Assembly: GCA_048886185.1 (NCBI GenBank) | Contig: JBHLKY010000005.1 | Coordinates: 86,901-118,900 of the forward strand | DNA from: Candidatus Hermodarchaeota archaeon | GTDB lineage: Archaea; Asgardarchaeota; Heimdallarchaeia; Hodarchaeales; Hodarchaeaceae | Reading direction: 5' to 3' | DNA length: 32,000 bases | Part shown: piece after piece, positions 9,639-32,000 of the stretch | How positions within the stretch are numbered: position 1 is the stretch's first letter | How the letters are laid out: each line of letters begins with the position of its first letter | Made by a program: the position numbers and the translations under genes | The notes under the pieces: generated by a model | Told to the model about the DNA's origin: nothing | The model's input: only the letters and a program-made list of their open reading frames with translations | Databases searched by the model: none

Positions 9639-10376
9639 TTAAGGTTGAAATAAGGTTTCTAAAGGTACTTTAATGTCCTGATAACGAAATGAAAGAATAT
9701 GTCGTGTTGTTTTTGGAGCATAAAGTCTTTTTTCTTTAGCTGCTTTAATAACATCCTCTTTCGTAACTCGTGTACGTAAAAGGGCAAATGAACCTTTATC
9801 ATTTTCAATTGAATGGATTGCAAAGTCAATTGTTTTTGCATAATCAAAAGCTGTGGGATTAAAATTGGCGAGAAACTTCTGATAAATAGCTTGTTGCGTT
9901 CCATTTAAACAATAATATTTACCATTATTTGTCATCAATGTAAAACCATATTTGGGGTTTTTTAGAATATCTCGTGAGAAATTCTCAATTTCGTCCCATT
10001 CAATACTCATTTTTTTGAGCTCAAATGGGAAGTTAAAGGGCCCCTTTTCAGTATAAAATGGATGCCAAGTACCGAGTTTAATGTCAGGATTATCAACATA
10101 TTCAATCTCAACACATGGTATTTTGATCACCTTGGCATTTCTTTCTTCACCTAGTTCTTTAAGTGCAACTACTCTATGATGTCCGTCTAGAATAACATTC
10201 TCATTCTTGACTACTAAAATTGGACGGAAAAAATGTCCAAGGTTTTTCAAGTTATCCTTTAACCAGCCAACTTGGTTTTGTACTGTTTCTTCATGACCAT
10301 AGAGCTCATCAATATTTAAAAGAACTATATGTTGATGAACTAGAGGTCTTTCTGAATAAAAGCGATCTTGGGCCAT
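9639..10376 (-). CDS. serK: ADP-dependent L-serine kinase SerK-like (ParB/Srx fold)
   Basis: GHEE, ILDGHHR, TWHP, TKEDV and C-terminal PKTTRHIL...VPLETLF follow Thermococcus SerK as I recall it, over the full length. Start set at ATG 10376 (MAQDRF) rather than 10424. Confidence 0.8.
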   Translation of the reverse strand: MAQDRFYSERPLVHQHIVLLNIDELYGHEETVQNQVGWLKDNLKNLGHFFRPILVVKNENVILDGHHRVVALKELGEERNAKVIKIPCVEIEYVDNPDIKLGTWHPFYTEKGPFNFPFELKKMSIEWDEIENFSRDILKNPKYGFTLMTNNGKYYCLNGTQQAIYQKFLANFNPTAFDYAKTIDFAIHSIENDKGSFALLRTRVTKEDVIKAAKEKRLYAPKTTRHILSFRYQDIKVPLETLFQP

Positions 10377-10431
10377 TATTCGACAACAGAATTCTTTTTT
10401 TTTAAATACCTTTATTTCGATCATTTAGGAT

Positions 10432-11232
10432 TTAAAGAATACTTAGAATGAATAAGAATATTATCAATAACAGTAATTTTAAAAAGTCTAAAGGGGTGAA
10501 ATAAATCTCTCTAATGTAGCTTCTTGTAGAATAACAACCAAAAGCACGACCATCCATGCTGATTGTTATGTCTCGTATCCTATTTAACGTTGAACTAATC
10601 ATAGGTATTAATGTATAGCTCAAAAGATTCACTACGCCTCGTAGATTATTAGGATTAATATTTAAACCTCGTGCCTGCTGTGCATTTTGAATAATACTAG
10701 TTTCTATATTAAATACAGGTGTAAAACGTAATGATAATGACAATGAATAGGCAAAACGGTATGGAATACCGATAGTAGTCAAAGATTGAGCGAAGTCAAA
10801 TGGATTTGTAGAATTAATGAAAATCCAACTAATTGAGATTAAACCCCAAAAACGACCTATCAAAAGTAATCCTTGATAAATCCCACGCTCATAGATAGGC
10901 AAAAATGGGCCATATTGATAAATTTTAATTGGAATAAGATGAAAATATAAGTCTCCACCATGAACAAAAAGAACTTGAACTAAAAAAATAGTAATTGAAA
11001 ACATAAGTATCATTCGGTAACGTGGCCTTGCAATATTGAAAGAGAGTCTTCCAAAGGAATAAATGAAGAATATACTAAGGACAATAAAATAAATTTTAAT
11101 TAGGTTAGAATCAGAAAAAAGTAACAAAGATACAAGAATCACTGCAGAGAATTTGACTAGAGGGTTCGTTCCAATCTTTTGACTGTTTTGAAGGAGAAAA
11201 ACTTCTAAGGAAATAGCTCGCTTATCATTCAT
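10432..11232 (-). CDS. ecfT: ECF transporter transmembrane T component
   Basis: Hydrophobic N-terminal half, SLSLRFTP, AQQARG and SMDGRAF (two conserved Arg motifs). Confidence 0.93.
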   Translation of the reverse strand: MNDKRAISLEVFLLQNSQKIGTNPLVKFSAVILVSLLLFSDSNLIKIYFIVLSIFFIYSFGRLSFNIARPRYRMILMFSITIFLVQVLFVHGGDLYFHLIPIKIYQYGPFLPIYERGIYQGLLLIGRFWGLISISWIFINSTNPFDFAQSLTTIGIPYRFAYSLSLSLRFTPVFNIETSIIQNAQQARGLNINPNNLRGVVNLLSYTLIPMISSTLNRIRDITISMDGRAFGCYSTRSYIREIYFTPLDFLKLLLLIIFLFILSIL

Positions 11233-12721
11233 TGAACATCATCTCTCTTAAAAAATTTATAATTCTAGTTTTATAGAGAAAAGGAATCACTTCATCTGGC
11301 GTTCCTTGATTAACAAGCTTTCCTTTATCTAAGACGAAAATATAATCAACTAAATCATATAGTTCTCTCCGATGAGATACAATGATTGTTGTAAATCCCT
11401 TTTGTTTTCGTTCTTTTAATTTTTGTATTAAATATTCAATATTTGCACGATCCTGTCCAATGAAGGGTTCATCTAGTAATAAAAGATCAGGAGTATAGAT
11501 TAAAATGGAACAAATGTTTAATCGGCGTTTTTCACCATAGCTTAAACCAAAAGGGGGCTGATTCAGATAAGAATCAAGTGCTGCTTCTTTAAGTAATTGG
11601 TTTGCTTTAAGATTAATGTCATGCAAATCTAATTTGAAATTTTTGGGAGCAAAAATCACTTCTTCTAAGATATTTCGTTCAAAGATTTGGTGATTGGGAT
11701 TTTGAAAAACAAGTCCTATTTTCTTAGCCAGCTGAAATGTAGGAATTTTTGTTATATCTTTTTTATTATATATAATATTCCCTGTGCTAGGTACGAGATT
11801 AAGTAGTGCTTGTAAGAGGGTGGTTTTACCAGCACCATTAGGGCCAACAATTCCATAAATTCGTCCAGGAGTTAGCTCTAGAGAAATCTGTTTTAATGCT
11901 TCACGCTTATTTAACATTATAGTGAGTTCTTGGGTTTTTAGGACTCTATTAGAAGAGGTTTGGTGAGGAATTTGTTTAACTTCTTTAAGTAGTTCATGAG
12001 GAACCTTGAGACTTCGAAAATTAATATTAGATTCCCTCATCTCTTTAATGACTTTTCCTTGTTCTATAACAATTAATTTATCAAGTAATTTTTTAAACAC
12101 GTAAGGTTGATGTTCTATTAAAATGATCGTTAGCTTTGTACATTTGTTTAACTCTTTTAGTGAAAGTATTAAATTTTGTACACTCCGATTATCCAAAAAA
12201 GAAGTTGGTTCATCAAGTATAAGAACCTTTGGTTGCATCGCAAGAATTGAGGCAATAACAACACGCTGTTTTTCACCACCTGAGAGCTCATTGGTAGATC
12301 TATTAACCAATGAAATAAGATCCATTGCTTTAATGCTGGTTTGCACTCGGTTAAGGATATCTTCTTTAGGTAACGCCAAGTTCTCTGGACCAAAAGCGAT
12401 TTCTTCGAGTACTGATGAAGTAACAAGCTGATTTTCGGGATCTTGTTGTACTAAGCCAATAAATTGACTAATATCACTAATAGACATCTCAAGACTTGAA
12501 ATTCCTTGAAAATTAACCTCTCCTCTTAATTCACCTGCAATTGTATGTGGGATGTGACCCGATAATGCTAATGCTAAAGTAGTTTTTCCTCCTCCACTAG
12601 TTCCAGTTACGCAAACAATTTCTCCTTCATTAAATTCTAAATTAATATCTGTTAATACAGGATTATCTGAACCATTATAGTAGAAGGATAAGTTATTCAC
12701 CTGAATCTGAGGGAGAACCAA
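11225..12721 (-). CDS. ecfA: ECF transporter fused double ATPase (EcfA-A', YkoD-like)
   Basis: Two Walker A (GTSGGGKT, GPNGAGKT), Q-loops QQDPENQ and FQNPNHQ, LSGGEKQR and LSYGEKRR, two LDEP; overlaps ecfT by 8 nt. Confidence 0.93.
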   Translation of the reverse strand: MVLPQIQVNNLSFYYNGSDNPVLTDINLEFNEGEIVCVTGTSGGGKTTLALALSGHIPHTIAGELRGEVNFQGISSLEMSISDISQFIGLVQQDPENQLVTSSVLEEIAFGPENLALPKEDILNRVQTSIKAMDLISLVNRSTNELSGGEKQRVVIASILAMQPKVLILDEPTSFLDNRSVQNLILSLKELNKCTKLTIILIEHQPYVFKKLLDKLIVIEQGKVIKEMRESNINFRSLKVPHELLKEVKQIPHQTSSNRVLKTQELTIMLNKREALKQISLELTPGRIYGIVGPNGAGKTTLLQALLNLVPSTGNIIYNKKDITKIPTFQLAKKIGLVFQNPNHQIFERNILEEVIFAPKNFKLDLHDINLKANQLLKEAALDSYLNQPPFGLSYGEKRRLNICSILIYTPDLLLLDEPFIGQDRANIEYLIQKLKERKQKGFTTIIVSHRRELYDLVDYIFVLDKGKLVNQGTPDEVIPFLYKTRIINFLREMMFNE

Positions 12722-12887
12722 TACGAGTCACACAATCTTCTATTCACTGAAAAAGTTTTTAATCAAGCTGATTCACAAAAAATGTGACCCATTAATAAAA
12801 CCTTTCTCCCTTTCAATCTCTTTTATACCTTGAAGTGATTTCATTTATTTATCTGAGAATTGTTGATAAAATATTATTTTCTTGTGA

Positions 12888-12909
12888 GATCCTGATTAAA
12901 TCTAGGATC
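12888..12909. terminator. Inverted repeat just downstream of the S-component gene; possible terminator or mRNA processing hairpin
   Basis: GATCCT-GATT-A-AATC-T-AGGATC in the 200-nt gap; no clear U-tract on the coding strand. Confidence 0.3.
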
Positions 12910-12921
12910 AATCTAAAATTT

Positions 12922-14061
12922 TTACAATTTATGAACTTCAATATGATTTACTTTTTGTACCCAAAAGCTGCCATGGAACTTCCCTGCAACTAAACGAAGC
13001 CCATTAGACTCCATGACTAGTAATAAGAATTTATCACCTTGAATATCTGTAGAATTAAATTCAACGTAATACCCATCTGATGCACTAATTTTTACCATAT
13101 AGAATTCAGAAATGGGTTGCGCTGCTTCTATTATAAGATGTAATGGAACACCAGTATAATTTTGGGGGGGCCTATATGTAAAATCACCTTTTAATTCAGC
13201 TTCTACCGTCACTTGACGATCTAAGAAGTCAGCTGGATAATAAGTGTAAGGATTATAAACATCTCCAGTTATTTGAGCCGAAAATCGATTTTGAGAAATT
13301 AAATAGGAGAAAATAGTTATTTCAAAAATAATTAAAATAATTATAAGGCTTATGCGAATTGCCCTTACATATTTTACTTTGTATGATAATGTAGGTTTTT
13401 TTCGCCAGTTTAAAATTGTGGATTTGCTATATAATTGAAAAACTGCGATTGGTAGAAACCCTCCTAGTAGAAATCCTGATCCAAAACTTAATGTTGCAAT
13501 AAATGCGATGAAATAGGCAGGGATTTGAGAATTGAAAAAAATAAGTTGCTGAAGGAATACATTTGATGCACTTGCTATACCTGACGCCAAAGAAATTATT
13601 ATTTTGTTGTTAGAAGAGAGGAAAATAATAAGAATTATCTCTATTATCAATCCTTGAGTACCAGATATCAACAAAACTAGAATACCGTGCGCACTGCCAG
13701 TAAAGAATTCAATAAATCCTTTCACGACACCTGCAAACAGTGCAACACCCATTTTACGATTTGTTAGCAAATAGATTAGTACTATCCAGAAGACGTGAAG
13801 CCCTGCAATTATTTGTCCCCCACCAAAAGGAAGACCAATAATCCTATTGATAAGATTACCTAGATACCCAATGAAAGTACTAAAAATACCTCCTAAAGCA
13901 CAAAAAAGAGCAATTATAACTAAATCACTTGTTTCATAATAGTACTGGGATCTTTTATGTCGTATTAGATCTGCTCTTACCCACGGAATCTTTGAGATAA
14001 GGGGAATGGTTTCAGAAGAACTACTGTTTGATATATCACGAGAGTCTTCTTCTTGTCTCAT
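12922..14061 (-). CDS. ECF S-component (YkoE-like) fused to a C-terminal sulfite-oxidase/MsrP-fold domain
   Basis: Residues ~45-210: six hydrophobic segments with GQIIAGLHVFW...GVALFAG...EFFTGSAHG...QGLIIE, the YkoE pattern. Extra TM at ~235-255. Residues ~260-379: YTGVPLHLII, SASDGY, LRLV, FWVQKVNHIEV. Confidence 0.8.
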   Translation of the reverse strand: MRQEEDSRDISNSSSSETIPLISKIPWVRADLIRHKRSQYYYETSDLVIIALFCALGGIFSTFIGYLGNLINRIIGLPFGGGQIIAGLHVFWIVLIYLLTNRKMGVALFAGVVKGFIEFFTGSAHGILVLLISGTQGLIIEIILIIFLSSNNKIIISLASGIASASNVFLQQLIFFNSQIPAYFIAFIATLSFGSGFLLGGFLPIAVFQLYSKSTILNWRKKPTLSYKVKYVRAIRISLIIILIIFEITIFSYLISQNRFSAQITGDVYNPYTYYPADFLDRQVTVEAELKGDFTYRPPQNYTGVPLHLIIEAAQPISEFYMVKISASDGYYVEFNSTDIQGDKFLLLVMESNGLRLVAGKFHGSFWVQKVNHIEVHKL

Positions 14062-14139
14062 GATCTGTCTCCGTAACTATTAATTACTTCCTAAAAGTCA
14101 ATAATGTTACTGTACTTGTTGTAGAAAGACAAAACATTC

Positions 14140-15180
14140 CTAAGTATAAGTTATTCTGATGAAAACAACATCACGGATCCATCGCCAACTATCAGTTAAA
14201 AAGGAATCAGGACTAACAAAAGCAATCATAAATGGTCCAGAGCCTTCTATTAAAGGAGAACTATCGTTCTTATAAGCTAAGATAAGACTTAAGTTATTTC
14301 TACCTCCATGACCAATAAATTCACCCGCAGAATTGTAAACAGGAACGCTTCCAAAAACCTCTTCTTTAATAAAGGTTCTCCTGTACCCATCCGATGCAAC
14401 AATTTCAATTGAAAAATTGAAAGATGTGTCAATTAAAGTATTGAAAACATAACTAAGATTCACACCTGTGTAATCAAAAGGACCAGTAAAAATTCCAGTT
14501 TTAGTAATAAAACCCCCAGCTGAAGTAATAGAAGGAAAATTAAGCACCTGAGTCCAAGAAAATGTGTAATTCTTCATATCAGCCTCGATGGTTATTCTTT
14601 CAGATTCACGTCGAAATTCTAATTTATTCACATATTTCGACCAACGAGTACCTGCTGATCCCCGTAGCGCTTCTAAAGAAGAGGTATTTCCTTTGTCGTT
14701 ATTAGAATAACCTTCATCTAGAGGAAGAAATGCAATGCGAGGGCCATCCTCCCAATTAGGATAAAGAATATCATTGAATTTATAAGCTAAAATCATAGAT
14801 CCTTGAGTGTTGTTCCATTTTGTAGTTGGCGGGATAATGTTATCATAAGTAAAAATTTGAGGTGTATAATTATCTCGTGTTGAAACGATTAAGAGGTCCC
14901 CTGTTTGAATTCCTCCGACCTCATCGGCAAGTATAGAAATTAGTATACCCTGATAGGTTCCTTTATCCCTCCAATTCCCAAGGGTATTCTGGTACTCACT
15001 TTTTCCTCTAATACTAGGTAATGATAAAAGGGAAGTCATATTGAAGGTTTTTGTTTCACCTGAGACACCAATAACAGTTAAAATTGTCTCTTCCTCTTCA
15101 GGAGAAGTATCGATGCAACCTGAGAATAATACAATTGCCATTAGCGAAAGAATGATAAATGAGGATTTTTTTAATTTCAT
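14140..15180 (-). CDS. Lipoprotein with two tandem sulfite-oxidase/MsrP-like (molybdopterin-binding fold) domains lacking the metal-ligating Cys
   Basis: MKLKK + hydrophobic + lipobox FSGC; two repeats each with YxG(I/V)xL, (T/A)(R/S)DxY, ILAYK..D, GP and W..V..(L/I). GTG 15189 is an alternative start; TTTTATATA box about 25 nt upstream. Confidence 0.7.
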   Translation of the reverse strand: MKLKKSSFIILSLMAIVLFSGCIDTSPEEEETILTVIGVSGETKTFNMTSLLSLPSIRGKSEYQNTLGNWRDKGTYQGILISILADEVGGIQTGDLLIVSTRDNYTPQIFTYDNIIPPTTKWNNTQGSMILAYKFNDILYPNWEDGPRIAFLPLDEGYSNNDKGNTSSLEALRGSAGTRWSKYVNKLEFRRESERITIEADMKNYTFSWTQVLNFPSITSAGGFITKTGIFTGPFDYTGVNLSYVFNTLIDTSFNFSIEIVASDGYRRTFIKEEVFGSVPVYNSAGEFIGHGGRNNLSLILAYKNDSSPLIEGSGPFMIAFVSPDSFLTDSWRWIRDVVFIRITYT

Positions 15181-15271
15181 AATGGTCACTTTTATATACT
15201 GGATTATTATATAAAAAAGAAATTAATAAATTTTGATTGGGTGAGCCTCTAAGCCCATCTTTTAGAACATC

Positions 15272-16063
15272 TTAGGTCGAGGATTTATTTGTATTGAAAG
15301 GATTTCGTGTATGTTTTATAACAGCTTGGGATAATTTAAGGGATCCACGGAGAAAACTAGCTGGTTTCATCTTTTGGCTACCCATACGCCATTTTTTGGC
15401 TTCATAAACAATATCAACGCCATCACTACCTATTTCATCTCCTAAAAGGAGATCAAACTTCTCAGGAACTTCAGGCCTCACTAAATTAAATATCCCTTCT
15501 GCTGCTAATGCTGCGTGTGCAATATCAAGAATTATATCAGCAAATTCTATACAAACAGGTTCCTCTCCCAGCTCACGATGAAGATATCCTCGCTTAATAC
15601 TTTCGTATCCCTGGTTGATTATTATTTTTGCAGAACGATTTAACAATTTCTCACTATAGTCAACGTTCTGTAAGACATTTTTTCCAAGTATGGCTTCTCC
15701 TTGTTGGGCAGCTGCAACAGCATGAATAGGTGAGAAGCCCATACCAATCCTTGCTGGTAAATCAGTGGATTCTAGAAGACGTAAATCAAGAATTGGAGCA
15801 TAGACTGGGTGAACGAAAAATACTGACAATGCTTCACCAATTTTAGCTAATCTACGTGGTGGTTTCTCTTCGTTGATGTCATCTACATCCACAATTAAGA
15901 CAAGGTCTATGTCACTGATCCCTGGTATTATCCAACCTGTTTCATCTTGTTCTCTTCGATAAGATCCATACAGTATTAGCCCTCGTACATATTGGAGAAG
16001 TTCATCTTCAACTGCACTAGTGAATTCTTCTAGTAGATTGTTGTACTCGTCATACCAAGACAT
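15272..16063 (-). CDS. Pol-beta superfamily nucleotidyltransferase with helical (HEPN-like) C-terminal domain
   Basis: LILYGSY...SDIDLVLIV, third acidic residue in LDLRL; helical C-terminal half (ILDIAHAALAAEG). Confidence 0.75.
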   Translation of the reverse strand: MSWYDEYNNLLEEFTSAVEDELLQYVRGLILYGSYRREQDETGWIIPGISDIDLVLIVDVDDINEEKPPRRLAKIGEALSVFFVHPVYAPILDLRLLESTDLPARIGMGFSPIHAVAAAQQGEAILGKNVLQNVDYSEKLLNRSAKIIINQGYESIKRGYLHRELGEEPVCIEFADIILDIAHAALAAEGIFNLVRPEVPEKFDLLLGDEIGSDGVDIVYEAKKWRMGSQKMKPASFLRGSLKLSQAVIKHTRNPFNTNKSST

Positions 16064-18109: not shown

Positions 18110-19900
18110 TTAGTATTGATGAACTTTATCTAGTTCCTCGTCTGATACATCAAAGACAACATTGTGTGGGGGTAAAGGTTCTTTATAGAAGAATTCGGGT
18201 AATCTATCGTCTTTTGCAGTCATTCCAGCTCTTTTATTAAATTCTCTTTCCCAACGAACTATGTTTTCACCATATTTATTAACATCGATTTCTGTTCCCA
18301 AGAAACCATTGATTGATTCAACCATACCATTTAATCCAGACTCAATATCAAGAATGGCAAATGCAATAAAAAGACAATAGCCAGTTGAATCAATATATGC
18401 AGTTGTATGTTGGAATGCTCGTGAAAGTTCTGCTTTTTTCACATCTCTACGATCAGGTTTTCCCCCGATTTGTAAGATTTCAGGTGCTATCGTATACCCT
18501 TGAGTATGGCAGCCACCTTGGGTTCCAGTTGCGTAAGTCACTCCGATACCCTTGATTGGTCTTGGATCATAAGCTGGGAGACTCTGCCCTTTCACTTGAG
18601 CAACTCGAGTGACTCCTTTGTATTTACCCATAGCTACAGCTCCATTACCAACAATTTTACCGATTTCTTCATCAGTGGTAATTTTCTTTAATAATTCAAC
18701 AGCTCCAGAACCGTCTCCGAATTCAAGTACACCTCCTTCCATTGCTACAGCAATAGTATTTCCAGCTTCAATTGTGTCTAGTCCTAGGTCATTGCAGACT
18801 CGATTTAGCTCTGCAACATAGTATAGATTATCGATTCCACAGTTAGTTCCTAAGGCCCAAACGGATTCATATTCAAGACAACCAACCTGATGTTTACCAG
18901 TGTCTTCATAAGGAACAATATTTGAACACCTCATGATACAACCTGGATGACATGCATGATTGTAAGTTGCAGTTGACTCAGGGAATTTTGCTTTCACTTT
19001 ATCAATAAATTCATGTACAGCTTCACCAGAAATCTTAGCTGCTCCCTCAAAACGACCCTCTTTCCAATTACGAGTGGGTAGTGCCCCTGCTTCGTTAATA
19101 ATATTTTGAAGAACATTTGTCCCATAGTTTTTGAGCCCACCAAAAGGTTTTATTTCACCTGTTTCAGGATCAGGTTTTTCTAGAACCCCTGTTACAGCAT
19201 GCTCATTTAAAGCATCCCGTAACTTTATTCGTCCTGTATCATATAGTTCTTGCTTAACAGGTTCAAGACCTTCAGTTCCTGTATCATCAGTGATGATTGC
19301 AATGACCCTTTTTGAACCTAATACGGCGCCTAAACCACCCCTACCTGCATATCGTCCAGGATCAGTGTTTTCGACATTGTTCCCAAAAATGCCAGCTCCT
19401 TTCATTAGCTTTTGACCTGCAATTCCACAACCAATTATTCCTGGTTTGTTGGGATATTCTTCCCAGATTTTTGTAATTAATTCATAAAGGCCCATCCCAG
19501 CATATTTATTAGCCATTACAATTTCGCATTTATTTTTCGACACAATAAGATTATACCACTTATCATCTTGGGGTTGGCCTTCTATAACTATAGCTTTAAG
19601 TCCTAAACGTCCAAGTTTTTGAGCTGTCAATCCACCTGCATTTGCCTCTTTGATCCCATTAGTGAGAGGAGATTTTCCTCCAACACTAAGTCTGCCAGAT
19701 GATGGGGCATTTGTGCCAGCCAAGATGCCCGGGGCTACAACTAGCTTATTTTCAGGCCCTAGAGGGTCGCACATCGGATCTACTTCATCAAAAACGATCT
19801 TACTCGTAAGGGCTCTCCCTCCGAGTGTTTCATATTCATCTGGAACAGTCTCATACGTATGTTTTAAGGTAGACATGTCTACTCTTAGAATTTTACTCAT
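18110..19900 (-). CDS. aor: Tungsten-dependent aldehyde:ferredoxin oxidoreductase family protein
   Basis: KSPLT, EANAGG, GRGGLGAVLGSK, CHPGCIMRC and GGCH [4Fe-4S] ligands, EYES, GLDTIEAG, YDPR, DDRLP. Confidence 0.95.
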   Translation of the reverse strand: MSKILRVDMSTLKHTYETVPDEYETLGGRALTSKIVFDEVDPMCDPLGPENKLVVAPGILAGTNAPSSGRLSVGGKSPLTNGIKEANAGGLTAQKLGRLGLKAIVIEGQPQDDKWYNLIVSKNKCEIVMANKYAGMGLYELITKIWEEYPNKPGIIGCGIAGQKLMKGAGIFGNNVENTDPGRYAGRGGLGAVLGSKRVIAIITDDTGTEGLEPVKQELYDTGRIKLRDALNEHAVTGVLEKPDPETGEIKPFGGLKNYGTNVLQNIINEAGALPTRNWKEGRFEGAAKISGEAVHEFIDKVKAKFPESTATYNHACHPGCIMRCSNIVPYEDTGKHQVGCLEYESVWALGTNCGIDNLYYVAELNRVCNDLGLDTIEAGNTIAVAMEGGVLEFGDGSGAVELLKKITTDEEIGKIVGNGAVAMGKYKGVTRVAQVKGQSLPAYDPRPIKGIGVTYATGTQGGCHTQGYTIAPEILQIGGKPDRRDVKKAELSRAFQHTTAYIDSTGYCLFIAFAILDIESGLNGMVESINGFLGTEIDVNKYGENIVRWEREFNKRAGMTAKDDRLPEFFYKEPLPPHNVVFDVSDEELDKVHQY

Positions 19901-20756: not shown

Positions 20757-21002
20757 TTAAGAACCACCGCCAACAGGTGGAAAAATCGCAACTACATCTT
20801 CTCCATTCAGCTTCTCTTGTAATTCTTGAATATTCCCATTAATCATTATTATTTTTGCTTGATCTTCGGAAATCTTAAGTTTCCTTAATAATGTAGCAAC
20901 GTTGGCGTCTTCTTCGAGAGTGACAGGGAAACTGTCGCCTAATTTGATATCAATTGGCCCGTATTTTCTAAGAGTAGCAAATAATTTTACCATTACAATC
21001 AT
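20757..21002 (-). CDS. moaD: MoaD/ThiS family sulfur-carrier (ubiquitin-like) protein
   Basis: VKLFATLR N-terminus, IMING, EDVVAIFPPVGGG, followed by one extra Ser before TAA. Confidence 0.88.
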   Translation of the reverse strand: MIVMVKLFATLRKYGPIDIKLGDSFPVTLEEDANVATLLRKLKISEDQAKIIMINGNIQELQEKLNGEDVVAIFPPVGGGS

Positions 21003-21017
21003 TTGAGTAAATTTCCT

Positions 21018-21350
21018 TTAATAATAATCGCTTTCATTTTTAGGTCTTTTTGTTATAAATCCATGACCTTTAAGATGTTGGCCCCCACATAAAAGGTACA
21101 TACCCGTTGGAAATAACCCAATTCGTGCTCCTTTTGGTATAATTGAATTTGGATTAGAAATGCTTCCATTGCTAAAAATCTCTCCACATTCATTTAACTT
21201 AATATCAAGACGATCTAATAGCTGAAATATTTTCTCTCCCTCAATGTACGGAAGCCAGAGGATCGTATCCTCTGCGAATGAAGCATTTGGGTCAATCTTT
21301 TTTTTTAATGAACCATATAAGTGAATCTCAATCATTATTATACGACTCAA
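21018..21350 (-). CDS. MoaD/ThiS-like beta-grasp protein with C-terminal extension
   Basis: IEIHLYGSLKK, FQLLDRLDI, IFSNG, ARIGLFP match the ThiS/MoaD pattern; then GMYLLCGGQHLKGHG.... Start may be ATG 21335. Confidence 0.7.
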   Translation of the reverse strand: MSRIIMIEIHLYGSLKKKIDPNASFAEDTILWLPYIEGEKIFQLLDRLDIKLNECGEIFSNGSISNPNSIIPKGARIGLFPTGMYLLCGGQHLKGHGFITKRPKNESDYY

Positions 21351-27345: not shown

Positions 27346-30300
27346 ATGATTGATTCCTTTCTTATTTGTAGAAAAAAAAATGCAATTTCACTGACAATCG
27401 TTGCCTTTCTATTCCTTGCTATATGTGTTAATCTACCAACATTGTTCTTAGATAAACAAACAGTACCAAGCTTAAGATCTCCTCCAAATGTCTCCTCCCA
27501 AGACCCCTCAATGGATACTATTGTTGATAGTATTCCGAAACCAGATTTTGAACAATATCAATTTTTGGATCCTAAACTTCGTTCATATATGGAGACAGGG
27601 AAGATACCTGAAGGTATCAAAGCCTATAAGGATAGAGTATATTTCCTAATGGGAGCAACAATTAATGTTGATTTTGAAGCGTTGAATGAACATATGACAA
27701 TTAAACAGGTTGCCAAGCTCAATGGTGGCTATATTATACAGGGATATGTCACAAACAGTAAAGTACTACGACGGATTTACTCGAGATCCGATGTAGGAGT
27801 TATAATGTCCGAAAAAAAAGCAGAATTCAAAGAGAATAATAATCCTAAAGATATTACAAAACAGTTTAACATGCAAGAAGTCATGAATGCAGACCGAGTA
27901 AATAATGTGACTGGTAAGGGTGAATTTGACTATCCTATTGATGGAACAGGTGTCACCATTGGTCTTGTTGATTCAGGTACAGATTTCGGTGTTACTGATC
28001 TTAGTACAGCTTACGCAATTGACTCCTCGGGATATCCAACGAGTTTTGACGGTGAAGGCGCAGGATTGGCTGTCACAAATGCATCAATTGCAAGGAGTGG
28101 GGATTATCTACTCCTAAATAACCATAGCTACCCGATCTGGATCGGAGATACAGCTTCTTGGCTTAATTCAACTGATTTGTTTGATACCGAGGATATTAAG
28201 GTTGGAACAGGAATCCCCAGCGTATCTGGCATATATAAAGTTGGAATTGCTGGAACATTTTCCCCTGGTATGCCTTATGCAATAGAATTCTTTCTATTCC
28301 TTCTCACTGATTCAACAACAGATTCAGTTTACGATACACTATATATCGATTGGGAAACTTCATGGAATCTTACAGCTATTTATAATGAGCTTACAAATGG
28401 GCCAATGGCTGACTGGGACTTTACTAATAACGATCCTCACCGTTGGGGAGACGGTACCGAAGTATTAGCTACTGATTTTAACAGTGATGGCATTAATGAT
28501 TTCAGTTTAGGATGTTTAGCAAATACAAACGATATTTATGACATTATGACTGGCGGATTAATTAATGGAATTGACAATACTGGAGCTGGAATCGCTTTCA
28601 TGTGTGATCCTGATGGTCATGGAACAAGTACTGCTGCAGCTGCAGCTGGTCGTGGAATCACGGATTATGATGTTTATGGCAATGGTACCATGTATAAGCT
28701 TCCTGGGATAGCTCCTGCAGCTGATTTAATGGCTATTAGGGCTTTTAATCCCTATGGATGGTTATGGGGTTCTGGTTGGGATCCTATCGTAGGTCAAGAA
28801 CCAAATCGAGATTTCCTTAACTGGACCTATACTGGTAATCATAAAGCCAACCTCCTTAGTAACTCTTGGGGTTGGGTAGGTTTTGAAATCAACGATTTTA
28901 TTTGGGGTTATGACTGGTGGAGTTGGTTTATTGATTACCTCTCAGCTTGGAATAGCACTTTAATTCTAATGGCTGCTGGAAATGATGGCCCTGGTTACGG
29001 TTCAGGATTCACACCAAGCAGTGCTGCTGCACTAACAGTTGGAGCGAGTACGAGCTTTCATATTTACGAAGATGTTTATGATAATAACAGCTATTGGGAA
29101 CAAGGTGCAGATCAGATAATCTCATGGTCATCAGGTGGTCCAATGCCATCAGGGGTTCCAAAACCTAATGTTGTAGCTGTTGGATCAGGAACATTTACTG
29201 TTGACTCATTAGATCACGGACAGGGAGATGGTTCGAATGCTGTTGGAATTTTTGGAGGAACCAGCCTAGCTTGCCCTGTAGCAGCAGGTGTTGCTGCTTT
29301 AATGTTTCAAGCTGGTTATGATAGTAGTGTCTTTCCATCTCCAGATGAACCTGGCTATATAAAGGCTGTAATGGGATCAACTGCTATGGATTTAGGGTAT
29401 GATCCTTTCCGTCAAGGATCAGGATTGGTTGACGCATGGCGAGCTGTAAACATGATGTTTGGTAATAACACAGATGGAACAGATCCAATGCTTTTAGTAT
29501 ATGGTACTTCAACCTTTGATCGTGTTGCTACCAAGGATGATCGTTCAAGTGGTTGGCTAGGATACTACACGGGATTATACGAAACTGGAGATCCCTTCTC
29601 TCCAGAACAGGATACATCAACCCGACGACAATATCATCCATCGGAATTTATGCAAAGTGTTGGTGATAACAACCTGTTTACTGGAAGTTTATTCCCTGGT
29701 GAATCACAAACATCCCAAATGTTGGTTTCAACTGCTGGAGCTCCTAATACCGCGGATTCTGCAGCAGCTTATGAACTAGTTCTTTGGAATGAATCGACTA
29801 GCATGCTGCATTCAACTTCAGAGAACACAACGTGGCCCTTAGAGGATAATTTTGATACTGCTTTTATGAATCAATGGAATACTTGTGACTACGCAGTAAT
29901 ATATCTTACTTACGATAAAAATATGTTCGAAGATGTTTTTCGGGCAGTTGATGACAGTAATTATGTATTTTTACATGATTGGAACGATTTGAATGACAAT
30001 GGACGGATAGATTTCGCACCAGAGGAAAATGGCGAGGTACGTCGGGTGCAGAGTGACACAGGTGGCGGAAATAATCACCAATTACATGTTGGAAAACCAG
30101 GTGAGGCATTCTACAAGACAGGCATAGGTAGTAGAGGGCCGACAATCTATTACCGTGATATTGGCTTTGAAAACGACCGGTGGTCATCCCTGGACGTTTT
30201 AATAACCATTCGTCTTTATAAGAAGACACTCTGGCAAGGAACTCCAATAGATGTAAATCTCATTCTCAATAGTACCTTTGTATGGAATATCACAGTCACA

Positions 30301-32000
30301 GTGGACCAATCCGCTTCTCCAGGGATGTATGGTGGTTTTATTGAATGGACTGAAGGTAGTTTAGTGACAACACGAACTCCAGTTTGTGTCAGAGTAGATG
30401 GCAAAGCTCCTCCTGATATCTCTTTATCATGGGGTGGATCCACTGGTAGACCATATGATAATGGTGCAACTTTCGGAGGTGTTAATTGGTTGGGTCAAAC
30501 TCCAGCTACAGGTGATTGGCGATTCTACTATGTAGATATCGATTATTTTTTAAATAATGCGACTGATGACTTTACAACATGGGTTATGACAAATGTCACA
30601 TGGACAGATCCAGAAACTGTGATTGATGTATACGTTTTCATGAGTGGATATGGAAGTATGGTCTACTTTGGTCCTTATAGTGCAACACAGTCTCAATCAG
30701 AGATCTTCGATTGGACGGGTCGAACTGAAGGTAGACCCACTGGTGAGCGTTCGAATGTACTACTCACTGATTTCACATGGGATGTAAGTGGTTGGTGGGG
30801 TTGGAATACCACAGGTACAGAAGAATGGTTGAATGATAATTCCATTGCTTCTGCTGGACACCTTGGTTACTTTGGTATCGCTTTACGTACAATTGAATAT
30901 GGTTCAATGGCAGCCTATGAAAATTTCACCGTTACCATAAGCGCAGTTCGTAATAGTACATTAACAAGTTACCGAGAAGCTGGACTTCAATCAATTGATG
31001 ACAGTTGGGATCCCTCCTTAATCGGTGGATATCCACCTGCTCCGTTTGCGAATGTTACTCATGAAGGTTTGGATGGACTTATGTCTAACGCACCAACAGC
31101 AATGATTAGAGCTATTGATGACGGAGGTGCAGCAGTTACTAGCGGTAGCAGTTGGGAAGGACCCCACGCTCGGTTCAGTGGCACTTTTGATCCTTGGTCT
31201 CTACCTGGATTTCAAAGTGTTATGATTCGTAATACAGAAATTAAGATTGAATTAGTCGATTCAATTTACGTTGAAGGATTATTGACCGAGGATACTGCAA
31301 TACCGCGTGATTTACCCTCTAATCCAGATGATCTCGACTGGACACACCCTTGGTATGGTATTGAGGCGGGTCAGCGAATTAAACTAGATTTAACTGTACC
31401 AGATCCTCCAGGTATTCCAGGAGATCCTCCACATGATCTAGAGCTAGTATTGGTATCGCCATCAGGGATAATGGTTGCCACAAGTACGAGTGAAGGTAGT
31501 GTAGAAAGCATTAGCCATGTTGCAGCTGAAAGTGGAACGTATATCATTGGTGTTGATTACTGGGGTATCGATGAGTCGCCCTATTATCTTTGGGGTGATT
31601 GGCCAGGCGGTCTTCCATTTATCGTAACAGGCAGGGCAGCCCTAGGTGTCTCCCAAGGAGCTATTGGAACCACCGTGACTGTTGACAGCCATACTCTAGG
31701 TCAAAACAATGTGTTCGAGATAATTGTCAAAGGATACACTAATACATCACTAGATTGGTTACCTTTCGCAGAACACGTCGTAACAGATGTTACCATCAAT
31801 AATTTCCTTCCACCAGTAGTTAAAGTAACCTATCCTAATGGTGGGGAAATAGTTGGTCCAGAACCAGTTACCATTACATGGACAGCTAGTGATCCTAATG
31901 AAGATAGTCTTCTTTTTACAGTCGAAGTTAGTAGTGATGGAGGATTAACTTGGAAACGCCTCGTACGAAACCAAAGAGAAATATATTCTCTAGAAAGGGA
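27346..32000 (+). CDS. Large secreted S8 subtilisin-like serine protease (pyrolysin-like), 3'-partial
   Basis: Open frame from ATG 27346 to the window end (>1550 codons; missing from the ORF track for lack of a stop). Signal peptide; catalytic Asp in GLVDSG (27970), His in DGHGT (28618), oxyanion Asn in AAGND (28981), Ser in GGTSLACP (29263); PPC-like domain near 31370-31570; YPNGGE Ig-like repeat near the end. Confidence 0.95.
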   Translation, partial: MIDSFLICRKKNAISLTIVAFLFLAICVNLPTLFLDKQTVPSLRSPPNVSSQDPSMDTIVDSIPKPDFEQYQFLDPKLRSYMETGKIPEGIKAYKDRVYFLMGATINVDFEALNEHMTIKQVAKLNGGYIIQGYVTNSKVLRRIYSRSDVGVIMSEKKAEFKENNNPKDITKQFNMQEVMNADRVNNVTGKGEFDYPIDGTGVTIGLVDSGTDFGVTDLSTAYAIDSSGYPTSFDGEGAGLAVTNASIARSGDYLLLNNHSYPIWIGDTASWLNSTDLFDTEDIKVGTGIPSVSGIYKVGIAGTFSPGMPYAIEFFLFLLTDSTTDSVYDTLYIDWETSWNLTAIYNELTNGPMADWDFTNNDPHRWGDGTEVLATDFNSDGINDFSLGCLANTNDIYDIMTGGLINGIDNTGAGIAFMCDPDGHGTSTAAAAAGRGITDYDVYGNGTMYKLPGIAPAADLMAIRAFNPYGWLWGSGWDPIVGQEPNRDFLNWTYTGNHKANLLSNSWGWVGFEINDFIWGYDWWSWFIDYLSAWNSTLILMAAGNDGPGYGSGFTPSSAAALTVGASTSFHIYEDVYDNNSYWEQGADQIISWSSGGPMPSGVPKPNVVAVGSGTFTVDSLDHGQGDGSNAVGIFGGTSLACPVAAGVAALMFQAGYDSSVFPSPDEPGYIKAVMGSTAMDLGYDPFRQGSGLVDAWRAVNMMFGNNTDGTDPMLLVYGTSTFDRVATKDDRSSGWLGYYTGLYETGDPFSPEQDTSTRRQYHPSEFMQSVGDNNLFTGSLFPGESQTSQMLVSTAGAPNTADSAAAYELVLWNESTSMLHSTSENTTWPLEDNFDTAFMNQWNTCDYAVIYLTYDKNMFEDVFRAVDDSNYVFLHDWNDLNDNGRIDFAPEENGEVRRVQSDTGGGNNHQLHVGKPGEAFYKTGIGSRGPTIYYRDIGFENDRWSSLDVLITIRLYKKTLWQGTPIDVNLILNSTFVWNITVTVDQSASPGMYGGFIEWTEGSLVTTRTPVCVRVDGKAPPDISLSWGGSTGRPYDNGATFGGVNWLGQTPATGDWRFYYVDIDYFLNNATDDFTTWVMTNVTWTDPETVIDVYVFMSGYGSMVYFGPYSATQSQSEIFDWTGRTEGRPTGERSNVLLTDFTWDVSGWWGWNTTGTEEWLNDNSIASAGHLGYFGIALRTIEYGSMAAYENFTVTISAVRNSTLTSYREAGLQSIDDSWDPSLIGGYPPAPFANVTHEGLDGLMSNAPTAMIRAIDDGGAAVTSGSSWEGPHARFSGTFDPWSLPGFQSVMIRNTEIKIELVDSIYVEGLLTEDTAIPRDLPSNPDDLDWTHPWYGIEAGQRIKLDLTVPDPPGIPGDPPHDLELVLVSPSGIMVATSTSEGSVESISHVAAESGTYIIGVDYWGIDESPYYLWGDWPGGLPFIVTGRAALGVSQGAIGTTVTVDSHTLGQNNVFEIIVKGYTNTSLDWLPFAEHVVTDVTINNFLPPVVKVTYPNGGEIVGPEPVTITWTASDPNEDSLLFTVEVSSDGGLTWKRLVRNQREIYSLER

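Follow-up and report, generated by a model that had tools for sequence, protein, structure and literature searches.

The DNA stretch analysed here, 32,000 nucleotides from an Asgard archaeon (Candidatus Hermodarchaeota archaeon, assembly GCA_048886185.1; positions 86,901 to 118,900 of contig JBHLKY010000005.1; hereafter "the window"), carries at 10432-15189, on the minus strand, a cassette of four co-oriented genes, encoding a lipoprotein, a fused S-component, a double ATPase and EcfT. With a probability of about 0.68, this cassette is a dedicated group I energy-coupling factor (ECF) importer for the pterin cofactor of molybdenum and tungsten enzymes, viz. molybdopterin (MPT), most likely in its W- or Mo-loaded form. 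Uptake of this cofactor is proposed because the outside domains of the system have a pterin-binding fold that lacks the metal ligand, because in archaea the system is complementary in its distribution to the synthesis of molybdenum cofactor (Moco), including a contrast between genomes at one and the same chromosomal site, and because related operons of bacteria are under the control of a Moco riboswitch. A metal-loaded cofactor or MPT fits better than either cyclic pyranopterin monophosphate (cPMP) or the metal, because early and late steps of the synthesis as well as any recognisable oxyanion binding protein are missing.

In the proposed mechanism, domains of the sulfite oxidase (SUOX) fold devoid of Cys, present on a tethered lipoprotein and on the S-component, would capture the pterin outside the cell and hand it over to the YkoE-derived pocket of the S-component, and the EcfAA'-EcfT module would power the uptake with ATP. 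In relatives, a surface metallophosphoesterase fused to a SUOX-like domain may first trim the dinucleotide forms of the cofactor (the guanine and cytosine dinucleotides MGD and MCD), a role suggested by the weak similarity of this accessory phosphoesterase to cyclic-nucleotide phosphodiesterases and ApaH. Such uptake would supply the 13 AORs and two MsrP-like enzymes of a host that appears to make no Moco or tungsten cofactor (Wco). The ligand, its hand-over, the direction of transport and the role of the phosphoesterase are what we infer from the evidence described below.

A four-gene ECF cassette with Cys-less outside domains

The first gene of the cassette (14140-15189) encodes a lipoprotein of 349 aa, for which the ATG at residue 4 is the likelier start, and which consists of a signal peptide, the lipobox LFSGC and two Cys-less SUOX-fold domains, viz. 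an N-type domain (residues 33-193; 14611-15093) and a C-type domain (residues 196-349; 14143-14604). The second gene (12922-14061; 379 aa; PF09819, 63 bits on residues 46-165) encodes the S-component fusion, in which a YkoE-type six-helix core (residues 41-225; 13387-13941) is joined through a seventh transmembrane helix (residues 229-260 in the AlphaFold2 (AF2) model; 13282-13377) to a Cys-less C-terminal SUOX-like domain of ~120 residues (residues 261-379; 12925-13281). The remaining genes, which overlap by 8 nt, are those for a fused EcfA-EcfA' double ATPase (11225-12721; 498 aa; TIGR04520, 347 bits; TIGR04521, 361 bits; two PF00005 matches) and the transmembrane coupling subunit EcfT (10432-11232; 266 aa; PF02361, 95 bits). 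All are on the minus strand, and the system has the make-up of a group I ECF importer, with a six-helix S fold and with the S gene adjoined by co-oriented genes for EcfT and for two EcfA ATPase domains.

The sole Cys of the lipoprotein is Cys25 in the lipobox, and that of the S-component fusion is Cys54 in the first membrane helix, and due to this all three outside domains are Cys-free. The C-terminal domain of the S-component is predicted to lie outside the cell by virtue of the seventh helix, by analogy with the known N-in/C-in topology of six-helix S-components. The preliminary description of this stretch had reported four co-oriented genes with three Cys-less extracytoplasmic domains, and this is borne out by the open reading frames, the family matches and the Cys positions. 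There are 34 homologs of the lipoprotein, of which all named ones are from Asgard archaea and several carry a precomputed PF00174 match, and 288 homologs of similar length for the S-component fusion; the AF2 models of the two proteins have pLDDT values of 82 and 87, respectively.

The outside domains have the sulfite oxidase fold

The SUOX fold was recognised by means of structure models built on alignments of homologs, after sequence searches of the lipoprotein had given nothing; it has no match among PDB sequences and none in Pfam, and no PF00174 match was seen in the Pfam search for any of the window's own proteins. The model of the lipoprotein C-domain matches chicken sulfite oxidase (3hbg) with a Z of 15.7 (VIA-align; root-mean-square deviation (rmsd) 2.2 over 133 aa) and the pterin binder PruR (7kp2) with a Z of 15.6 (VIA-align; rmsd 2.3, 130 aa), the Foldseek E value being 4e-7. 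For the C-domain of the S-component, the model matches SorA (2blf) with a Z of 15.1 (rmsd 2.0, 121 aa), SoxC with a Z of 14.8 and PruR (7kos) with a Z of 13.7 (rmsd 2.4, 115 aa), and for the S family there is also a match at the sequence level, between its profile and SoxC 2xts (E 2.5e-4). The matches to PruR (7kos, 7kp2 and 7kom; Z 13.7-15.6) span the entire PruR chain. In these models the sulfite oxidase fold of the two C-domains is confirmed. The same fold in the N-domain of the lipoprotein is supported by profile comparisons, as this N-type domain is related to the C-type domain with an hhalign probability of 96.4 (E 1e-9), and the N-type domain of an ortholog in a genome of the same genus (G185, locus L022) has a PF00174 match of 70 bits over aa 44-152. 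Among the three domains, hhalign probabilities of 96-98% (E 1e-9 to 7.5e-13) show that they are homologous.

The motifs of sulfite oxidase and MsrP type that had been quoted for these domains are present, viz. YTGVNL, ASDGY, LILAYK and W..V..I in the lipoprotein C-domain, and YTGVPL, ASDGY, LRLV and W..V..I in that of the S-component, with a diverged set (YQGILI, RDNY, ILAYKF and RWSKYV) in the lipoprotein N-domain. The claim that all three have this fold is upheld for the two C-domains by the proposed fold comparison, and is supported for the N-type domain by way of hhalign and PF00174. A D-x-Y motif and a C-terminal Trp are invariant in all three domain types (D106, Y108 and W183 in the lipoprotein N-type domain; D329, Y331 and W367 in the S-component C-domain), and the positions of the conserved Tyr and of the C-terminal Trp appear compatible with a pterin sandwich of the kind seen in PruR. 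At the site of the Mo-ligating Cys of the enzymes, the C-domain of the S-component has a short hairpin, and the hairpin region of the domains shows no Pro-Trp motif. The lipoprotein N-type domain has an extra conserved insertion (P.D..YSN.D...TSSLE). In some other members of this domain family, viz. a stand-alone lipoprotein and the phosphoesterase-fused N-type domains (L024 1852-2433, G000 contig 2; P0162; P0038), the insertion contains a conserved Cys (YSN.DC.ATS) that the window's lipoprotein lacks, and hence the term Cys-less does not hold for every member of the N-type family. The complex predicted for the lipoprotein and the S-component C-domain had a score of 0.00, which has no bearing either way.

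The core of the S-component is modelled with a Z of 23.4 to YkoE 5edl (rmsd 2.3, 181 aa), and the family profile matches 5edl with an E of 2e-14. YkoE contacts thiamine through Trp49, Tyr46, Glu77, Gln95 and Asp131 (PMC5037267). In the hidden Markov model (HMM) alignment to 5edl, the aminopyrimidine-binding pair Glu77/Gln95 is retained as E118/Q136, whereas the stacking Trp49 is replaced by an invariant His89, Tyr46 by Ala86 and Asp131 by an invariant Gln172. A pocket of this pattern, with the Glu/Gln pair kept and the Trp and Asp replaced, would suit a heterocyclic ligand that is changed but related. A solitary, unfused paralog of the core (223 aa; L023 1757-2428, G000 contig 4) is found without an adjoining ECF module; it was considered as the real thiamine S-component, but this was dropped, as the two are closely related and both have His at the position of YkoE Trp49.

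The host has the enzymes but no recognisable pathway

In the host genome (4.84 Mb, 96% complete), genome-wide family searches found no match for MoaC, the MoaA C-domain, MoaE or MoeA_N, and each of these searches recovered its family in the 11 control genomes having it, archaea included. The genome encodes 13 intact AORs and two MsrP-like proteins that retain the Mo-ligating Cys, and MobB is also retained. The sole PF00994 match, a candidate for MoaB/MogA, proved to be CinA-like, and the sole PF13531 match, a candidate for ModA/WtpA, to be PhnS-like; no TupA-type and no ModA/WtpA-type binding protein is recognisable in the searches of this genome. Judging from its gene content, the host cannot make the pterin cofactor by the known route.

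An AOR gene (18110-19900, minus strand; PF02730 and PF01314) and a gene of the ThiS/MoaD family (20757-21002, minus strand; PF02597) lie near the cassette, and genes of this family adjoin aor genes (20757-21350, minus strand) in a host without a MoaE, MoaA or MoaC match. Since these matches are lacking, the MoaD-like proteins of the host should be unable to serve in canonical molybdopterin synthesis. The placement of these neighbours was given correctly in the preliminary description, but it is of little weight as evidence, because aor genes number 13 in the host and only close relatives share the neighbourhood. The proximity of Mo/W enzymes in general (an aor gene 3 kb away in the window, and a PF00384 enzyme beside a Thorarchaeota locus) was rejected as evidence because it is not conserved in other loci.

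Fused S-component and MoaC exclude each other in the Asgard genomes sampled

All phyletic searches were carried out on the same 201 Asgard genomes, each at least 80% complete. The full-length fused S-component is present in 54 genomes and MoaC in 86, with no overlap between them; MoeA is found in 90 genomes, of which one (G080, on a very small contig) is among the 54 with the fusion; and AORs are found in 197, including all 54. Of the 76 genomes with SUOX domains of the lipoprotein type, a single one is MoaC-positive, and the match there is a fragment. The Fisher p value for fusion versus MoaC is 7e-17, which is overstated since related genomes are not independent. The complementarity is also seen within genera, with 9 versus 1 genomes having the fusion versus MoaC in g1, 9 versus 1 in g23, 9 versus 4 in g43 and 1 versus 2 in g53. 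The loss of moaA and moaC which had been named as a check on the idea is thus found as predicted, in the host, where MoaE and MoeA are also lacking, and in the mutual exclusion of fusion and MoaC.

Two other pathways served as controls. ThiC is found in 71/201 genomes and in none with the fusion, but whole families are without it regardless of the fusion, and MptA (GTP cyclohydrolase IB) is found in 162/201 genomes, viz. 47 of the 54 with the fusion and 115 of the 147 others. Measured against these controls, the pattern is a property of the Moco genes in particular, and this holds within genera as well. The distribution of ThiC is of note in its own right, as none of the genomes sampled from eight Asgard families (f1-f6, f10 and f16) has a match, which suggests, from gene content, a lineage-wide dependence of these families on external hydroxymethylpyrimidine (HMP) or thiamine.

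The exclusion can also be seen when a single chromosomal site is compared. The window has a nucleotidyltransferase-like gene (15272-16063) and a SerK-like gene (9639-10424) immediately on either side of the cassette, whereas in G091, the one congener having both MoaC and MoeA, these two genes adjoin each other at a distance of 137 nt and the cassette is absent. In the closed Heimdall chromosome CP070695, the genes for S, AA' and T are at the same site and the lipoprotein is encoded elsewhere. The SerK-like gene (minus strand), which comes next after EcfT with a gap of 7 nt, resembles archaeal ADP-dependent serine kinase SerK (NF053625, 101 bits, below the cut-off) and has a ParB-like DGHHR motif; it is not considered part of the transporter because it keeps its place next to ThyX in congeners without the ECF cassette.

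Related cassettes in other archaea and in Bacillota

Relatives of the fusion number 387 in a scan of species genomes; they come from Thermoplasmata, Hadarchaeota, 'Methanobacteriota' and many Bacillota, the cultured carriers including Anoxynatronum buryatiense and A. sibiricum and also Syntrophomonas. The layout of the operon is the same throughout, with SUOX-like binding proteins, often a metallophosphoesterase fused to an N-type domain, the S fusion, EcfAA' and EcfT. Conservation of the cluster, another check that had been asked for, is thereby established for Asgard archaea, other archaea and Bacillota. One variant is found in the same genus as the host (G185, L022 7046-11782), where the S fusion has as its neighbours a phosphoesterase fusion and a multi-domain SUOX-like protein of 659 aa; as no ATPase or EcfT gene follows there, the ECF module of this genome must be encoded elsewhere. 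Of the non-Asgard carriers, 16 genomes (5 archaea and 11 bacteria) were checked for the pathway; AORs are present in all 16, and neither MoaC nor MoeA is matched in any of the 5 archaea.

In 7 of 20 bacterial (Bacillota) loci, the Moco/Tuco riboswitch RF01055 is present on the same strand (61-73 bits), and in the loci checked it lies directly before the first gene of the operon; the scan covered a flank of 3 kb, which may have hidden further cases. No TPP (thiamine pyrophosphate) or THF (tetrahydrofolate) riboswitch reached the Rfam threshold in these 20 loci. The P3 stem of RF01055 is deleted in all three alignments printed, and the P3-less form of this riboswitch has been tied to the tungsten cofactor (Tuco) by Regulski et al. 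(PMC2408646). The same study reported, as unexplained exceptions, riboswitches of the Tuco type before 'putative sulphite oxidase' genes in Syntrophomonas wolfei (PMC2408646), which the present system may explain. For the archaeal window the Rfam scan gave no RNA family match, and hence neither RF01055 nor a TPP riboswitch is seen there; the promoter and terminator scan, which was at chance level, is of a bacterial type not applicable to archaea. In the window, positions 28000-32000 have a G+C content of 41-44% against ~32% elsewhere, with no Rfam match, so that this region is not an rRNA operon.

Evidence against cofactor import and alternative explanations

Several observations weigh against the import of a finished cofactor. 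Moco and Wco are very labile outside proteins. All of the Asgard genomes used are metagenome-assembled. MoaC and MoeA are both present, in addition to the importer, in all 11 bacterial carriers, so that the complementarity is an archaeal pattern only; for vitamins it is normal that an importer and an own pathway occur together, yet the argument from complementarity is removed for bacteria. In one genome of another Asgard family (G169, family f13; L111 6218-11036), an ECF module made up of an unfused YkoE-like S-component, EcfAA' and EcfT immediately precedes moaC and moaA in the same orientation, and two moeA genes follow at some distance; here the pathway is present, and such an arrangement would suit a transporter of the metal or of a precursor in that branch. 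The riboswitch, too, is ambiguous, as riboswitches of the Moco/Tuco type are often found in control of tungstate and molybdate transporters (PMC2408646). Lastly, in 61 of the 201 Asgard genomes AORs are present while MoaC and the fusion are both missing, and due to this either other routes must exist or some of the absences are assembly gaps.

Some of these 61 genomes have related gene arrangements. In 20 of them (family f2, of the Heimdall class), a different SUOX-like protein is followed by two ATP-binding cassette (ABC) half-transporters; at the loci L017 7905-12899 and L018 3729-8558 these are a SUOX-like protein of ~335 aa and two half-transporters of ABC_membrane+ABC_tran type, and the two f2 genomes bearing MoaC are without the ~335-aa protein. 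This arrangement may represent another route, not of the ECF type, to the same end. In four others (family f6, likewise of the Heimdall class), the system occurs in split form and its cluster includes a MobB gene, which supports the link to the cofactor. At L112 230-3674 (G176) the split form consists of a SUOX-like protein, EcfT, a MobB + Fe-S protein, a membrane-anchored SUOX-like domain and an unfused YkoE-like S-component; no MoaC or MoeA match was found in this genome.

It could be argued that the system imports another heterocycle, viz. a pterin of the neopterin or monapterin type, a folate or methanopterin precursor, or HMP/thiamine. The ligands of PruR, which is structurally about as close as sulfite oxidase and has, like the domains of the cassette, a short Cys hairpin, are small non-Moco pterins, and the S-core is itself a member of the YkoE family with its Glu/Gln pair retained; however, the stacking Trp49 and the thiazole ligands of YkoE are replaced. 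ThiC is found neither in the host nor in any fusion-bearing genome, but its equal absence from related genomes without the fusion means that it does not track the fusion, and 47/54 fusion genomes retain MptA, the enzyme with which non-Moco pterin synthesis begins. As the only pathway whose absence does track the fusion is Moco synthesis, and as the bacterial operons lie behind a Moco/Tuco riboswitch and no TPP or THF riboswitch was seen in those loci, this alternative is unlikely. Quite unlikely, too, is an ECF-type tungstate or molybdate importer which replaces Wtp, Tup or Mod and whose SUOX-like domains bind the oxyanion. If the ligand were the metal, then the importer should accompany synthesis, yet MoaC is present in 0/54 and MoeA in 1/54 of the Asgard genomes with the fusion and both are missing in 5/5 other archaea, and without the pterin or an insertase the metal would be of no use to the cell. 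ECF importers for metals (Cbi and Nik) do exist, but the S-core is of the organic-vitamin (YkoE) type and not that of CbiM/NikM, and the known ligands of the SUOX fold are pterins. What speaks for the oxyanion is the lack of a recognisable ModA, WtpA or TupA in the host, the adjacency of the unfused relative to moaC-moaA-moeA in G169 and the usual role of the riboswitch noted above.

It would be less probable still, indeed very improbable, that the early precursor cPMP is imported and finished inside the cell. This compound is the most stable intermediate of the pathway, its cellular uptake is known from other systems, bacteria with the full pathway could use it, and the resemblance of the phosphoesterase to cyclic-nucleotide phosphodiesterases, although weak, would fit. 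However, its completion needs MoaE and MoeA, neither of which is found in the host genome, and MoeA is missing in 53/54 fusion-bearing Asgard genomes and in 5/5 other archaea. Hence, of the ligands listed in the preliminary description, Moco or tungstopterin is supported and a precursor such as cPMP is improbable in this host. The least probable explanation is that there is no cofactor importer at all, the outside domains being sensors, adhesins or redox modules and the complementarity a by-product of general genome reduction. PruR is indeed a signalling protein, and the lineages bearing the fusion are also without other pathways, e.g. ThiC, but the same cassette encodes a complete ECF importer module, the ThiC and MptA controls show specificity for Moco genes also within genera, and the bacterial operons are under riboswitch control. 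Import of the metal-loaded pterin cofactor or MPT by a dedicated ECF system thus remains the preferred interpretation.

Significance and comparison with known systems

If this interpretation is correct, it would explain how the Asgard genomes in which MoaC was not found (115/201) run many tungsten enzymes. Going further, we consider the chances to be about even that many Asgard archaea, including the Heimdall/Hodarchaeales-type relatives of eukaryotes, make no Mo/W pterin cofactor and import its intact, metal-loaded form through this ECF system, depending for it on their neighbours. In that case the system would be the first one known among prokaryotes to be dedicated to Moco/Wco import, and it would give the syntrophic dependence of these archaea a concrete molecular basis. 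A named nutrient dependency could help in the cultivation of these archaea, and the cultured carriers (A. buryatiense, A. sibiricum and Syntrophomonas) make the system testable. Moco is generally described as necessarily self-made, being too labile for uptake (e.g. PMC9026282). The literature search (subscription-only papers being outside its scope) found no description of a prokaryotic Moco/Wco importer and no paper describing an ECF system of such specificity, in keeping with the earlier statement that none had been characterised. What is new here is the Asgard case, the complementarity across 201 genomes with controls and the contrast of presence and absence at a syntenic site.

The general view is that ECF transporters work without outside binding proteins, and the cassette departs from this norm by having them. 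Its closest counterpart among transporters is the group I ECF system YkoEDC, which transports thiamine/HMP in Bacillus subtilis (YkoE 5EDL; PMC5037267) and with which it shares the S family PF09819, a fused double ATPase as in YkoD, a dedicated T subunit as in YkoC and the encoding of all of these together. However, the S-component of the cassette is extended by a seventh helix and by a SUOX-fold domain outside the cell, there are binding lipoproteins in addition, and the homologs of the cassette are linked to Moco genes or the Moco riboswitch and not to thiamine. With CbiMNQO, NikMNQO with NikK/L and the riboswitch-controlled ECF vitamin importers, the system has in common a dedicated ECF module, accessory extracytoplasmic components and, in its bacterial members, a cofactor-responsive riboswitch, but it differs from Cbi and Nik in its S family, in the fold of the accessory proteins and in the presumed class of ligand.

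As regards the outside domains, the members of the sulfite oxidase family (PF00174: sulfite oxidase, SorA, SoxC and MsrP/YedY) are similar in their fold and in the G-D and C-terminal W motifs, whereas the domains of the cassette are without the Mo-ligating Cys, which the MsrP-like proteins of the host keep, and without dimerisation or catalytic partner domains. Another case is PruR of Proteobacteria, a Cys-less periplasmic pterin binder (7kos, 7kp2, 7kom and 7rkb; PMC11194511), in which the pterin is sandwiched by Tyr104 and the C-terminal Trp160, with Asn102, and a Pro-Trp motif takes the position of the Cys (PMC11194511). Like PruR, the cassette has small extracytoplasmic Cys-less domains of the SUOX fold, placed outside by a lipobox and by the seventh helix. 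However, the Pro-Trp motif of PruR is not visible in them, and PruR partners the c-di-GMP enzyme DcpA in signalling and binds small non-Moco pterins, whereas the domains described here partner ECF subunits. Of the suggestion in the preliminary description that a Cys-less fold had been repurposed as a capture module, the capture of a pterin is supported, but the repurposing in itself is not new, as PruR exemplifies it; the new part is the coupling of the Cys-less SUOX fold to an ECF importer.

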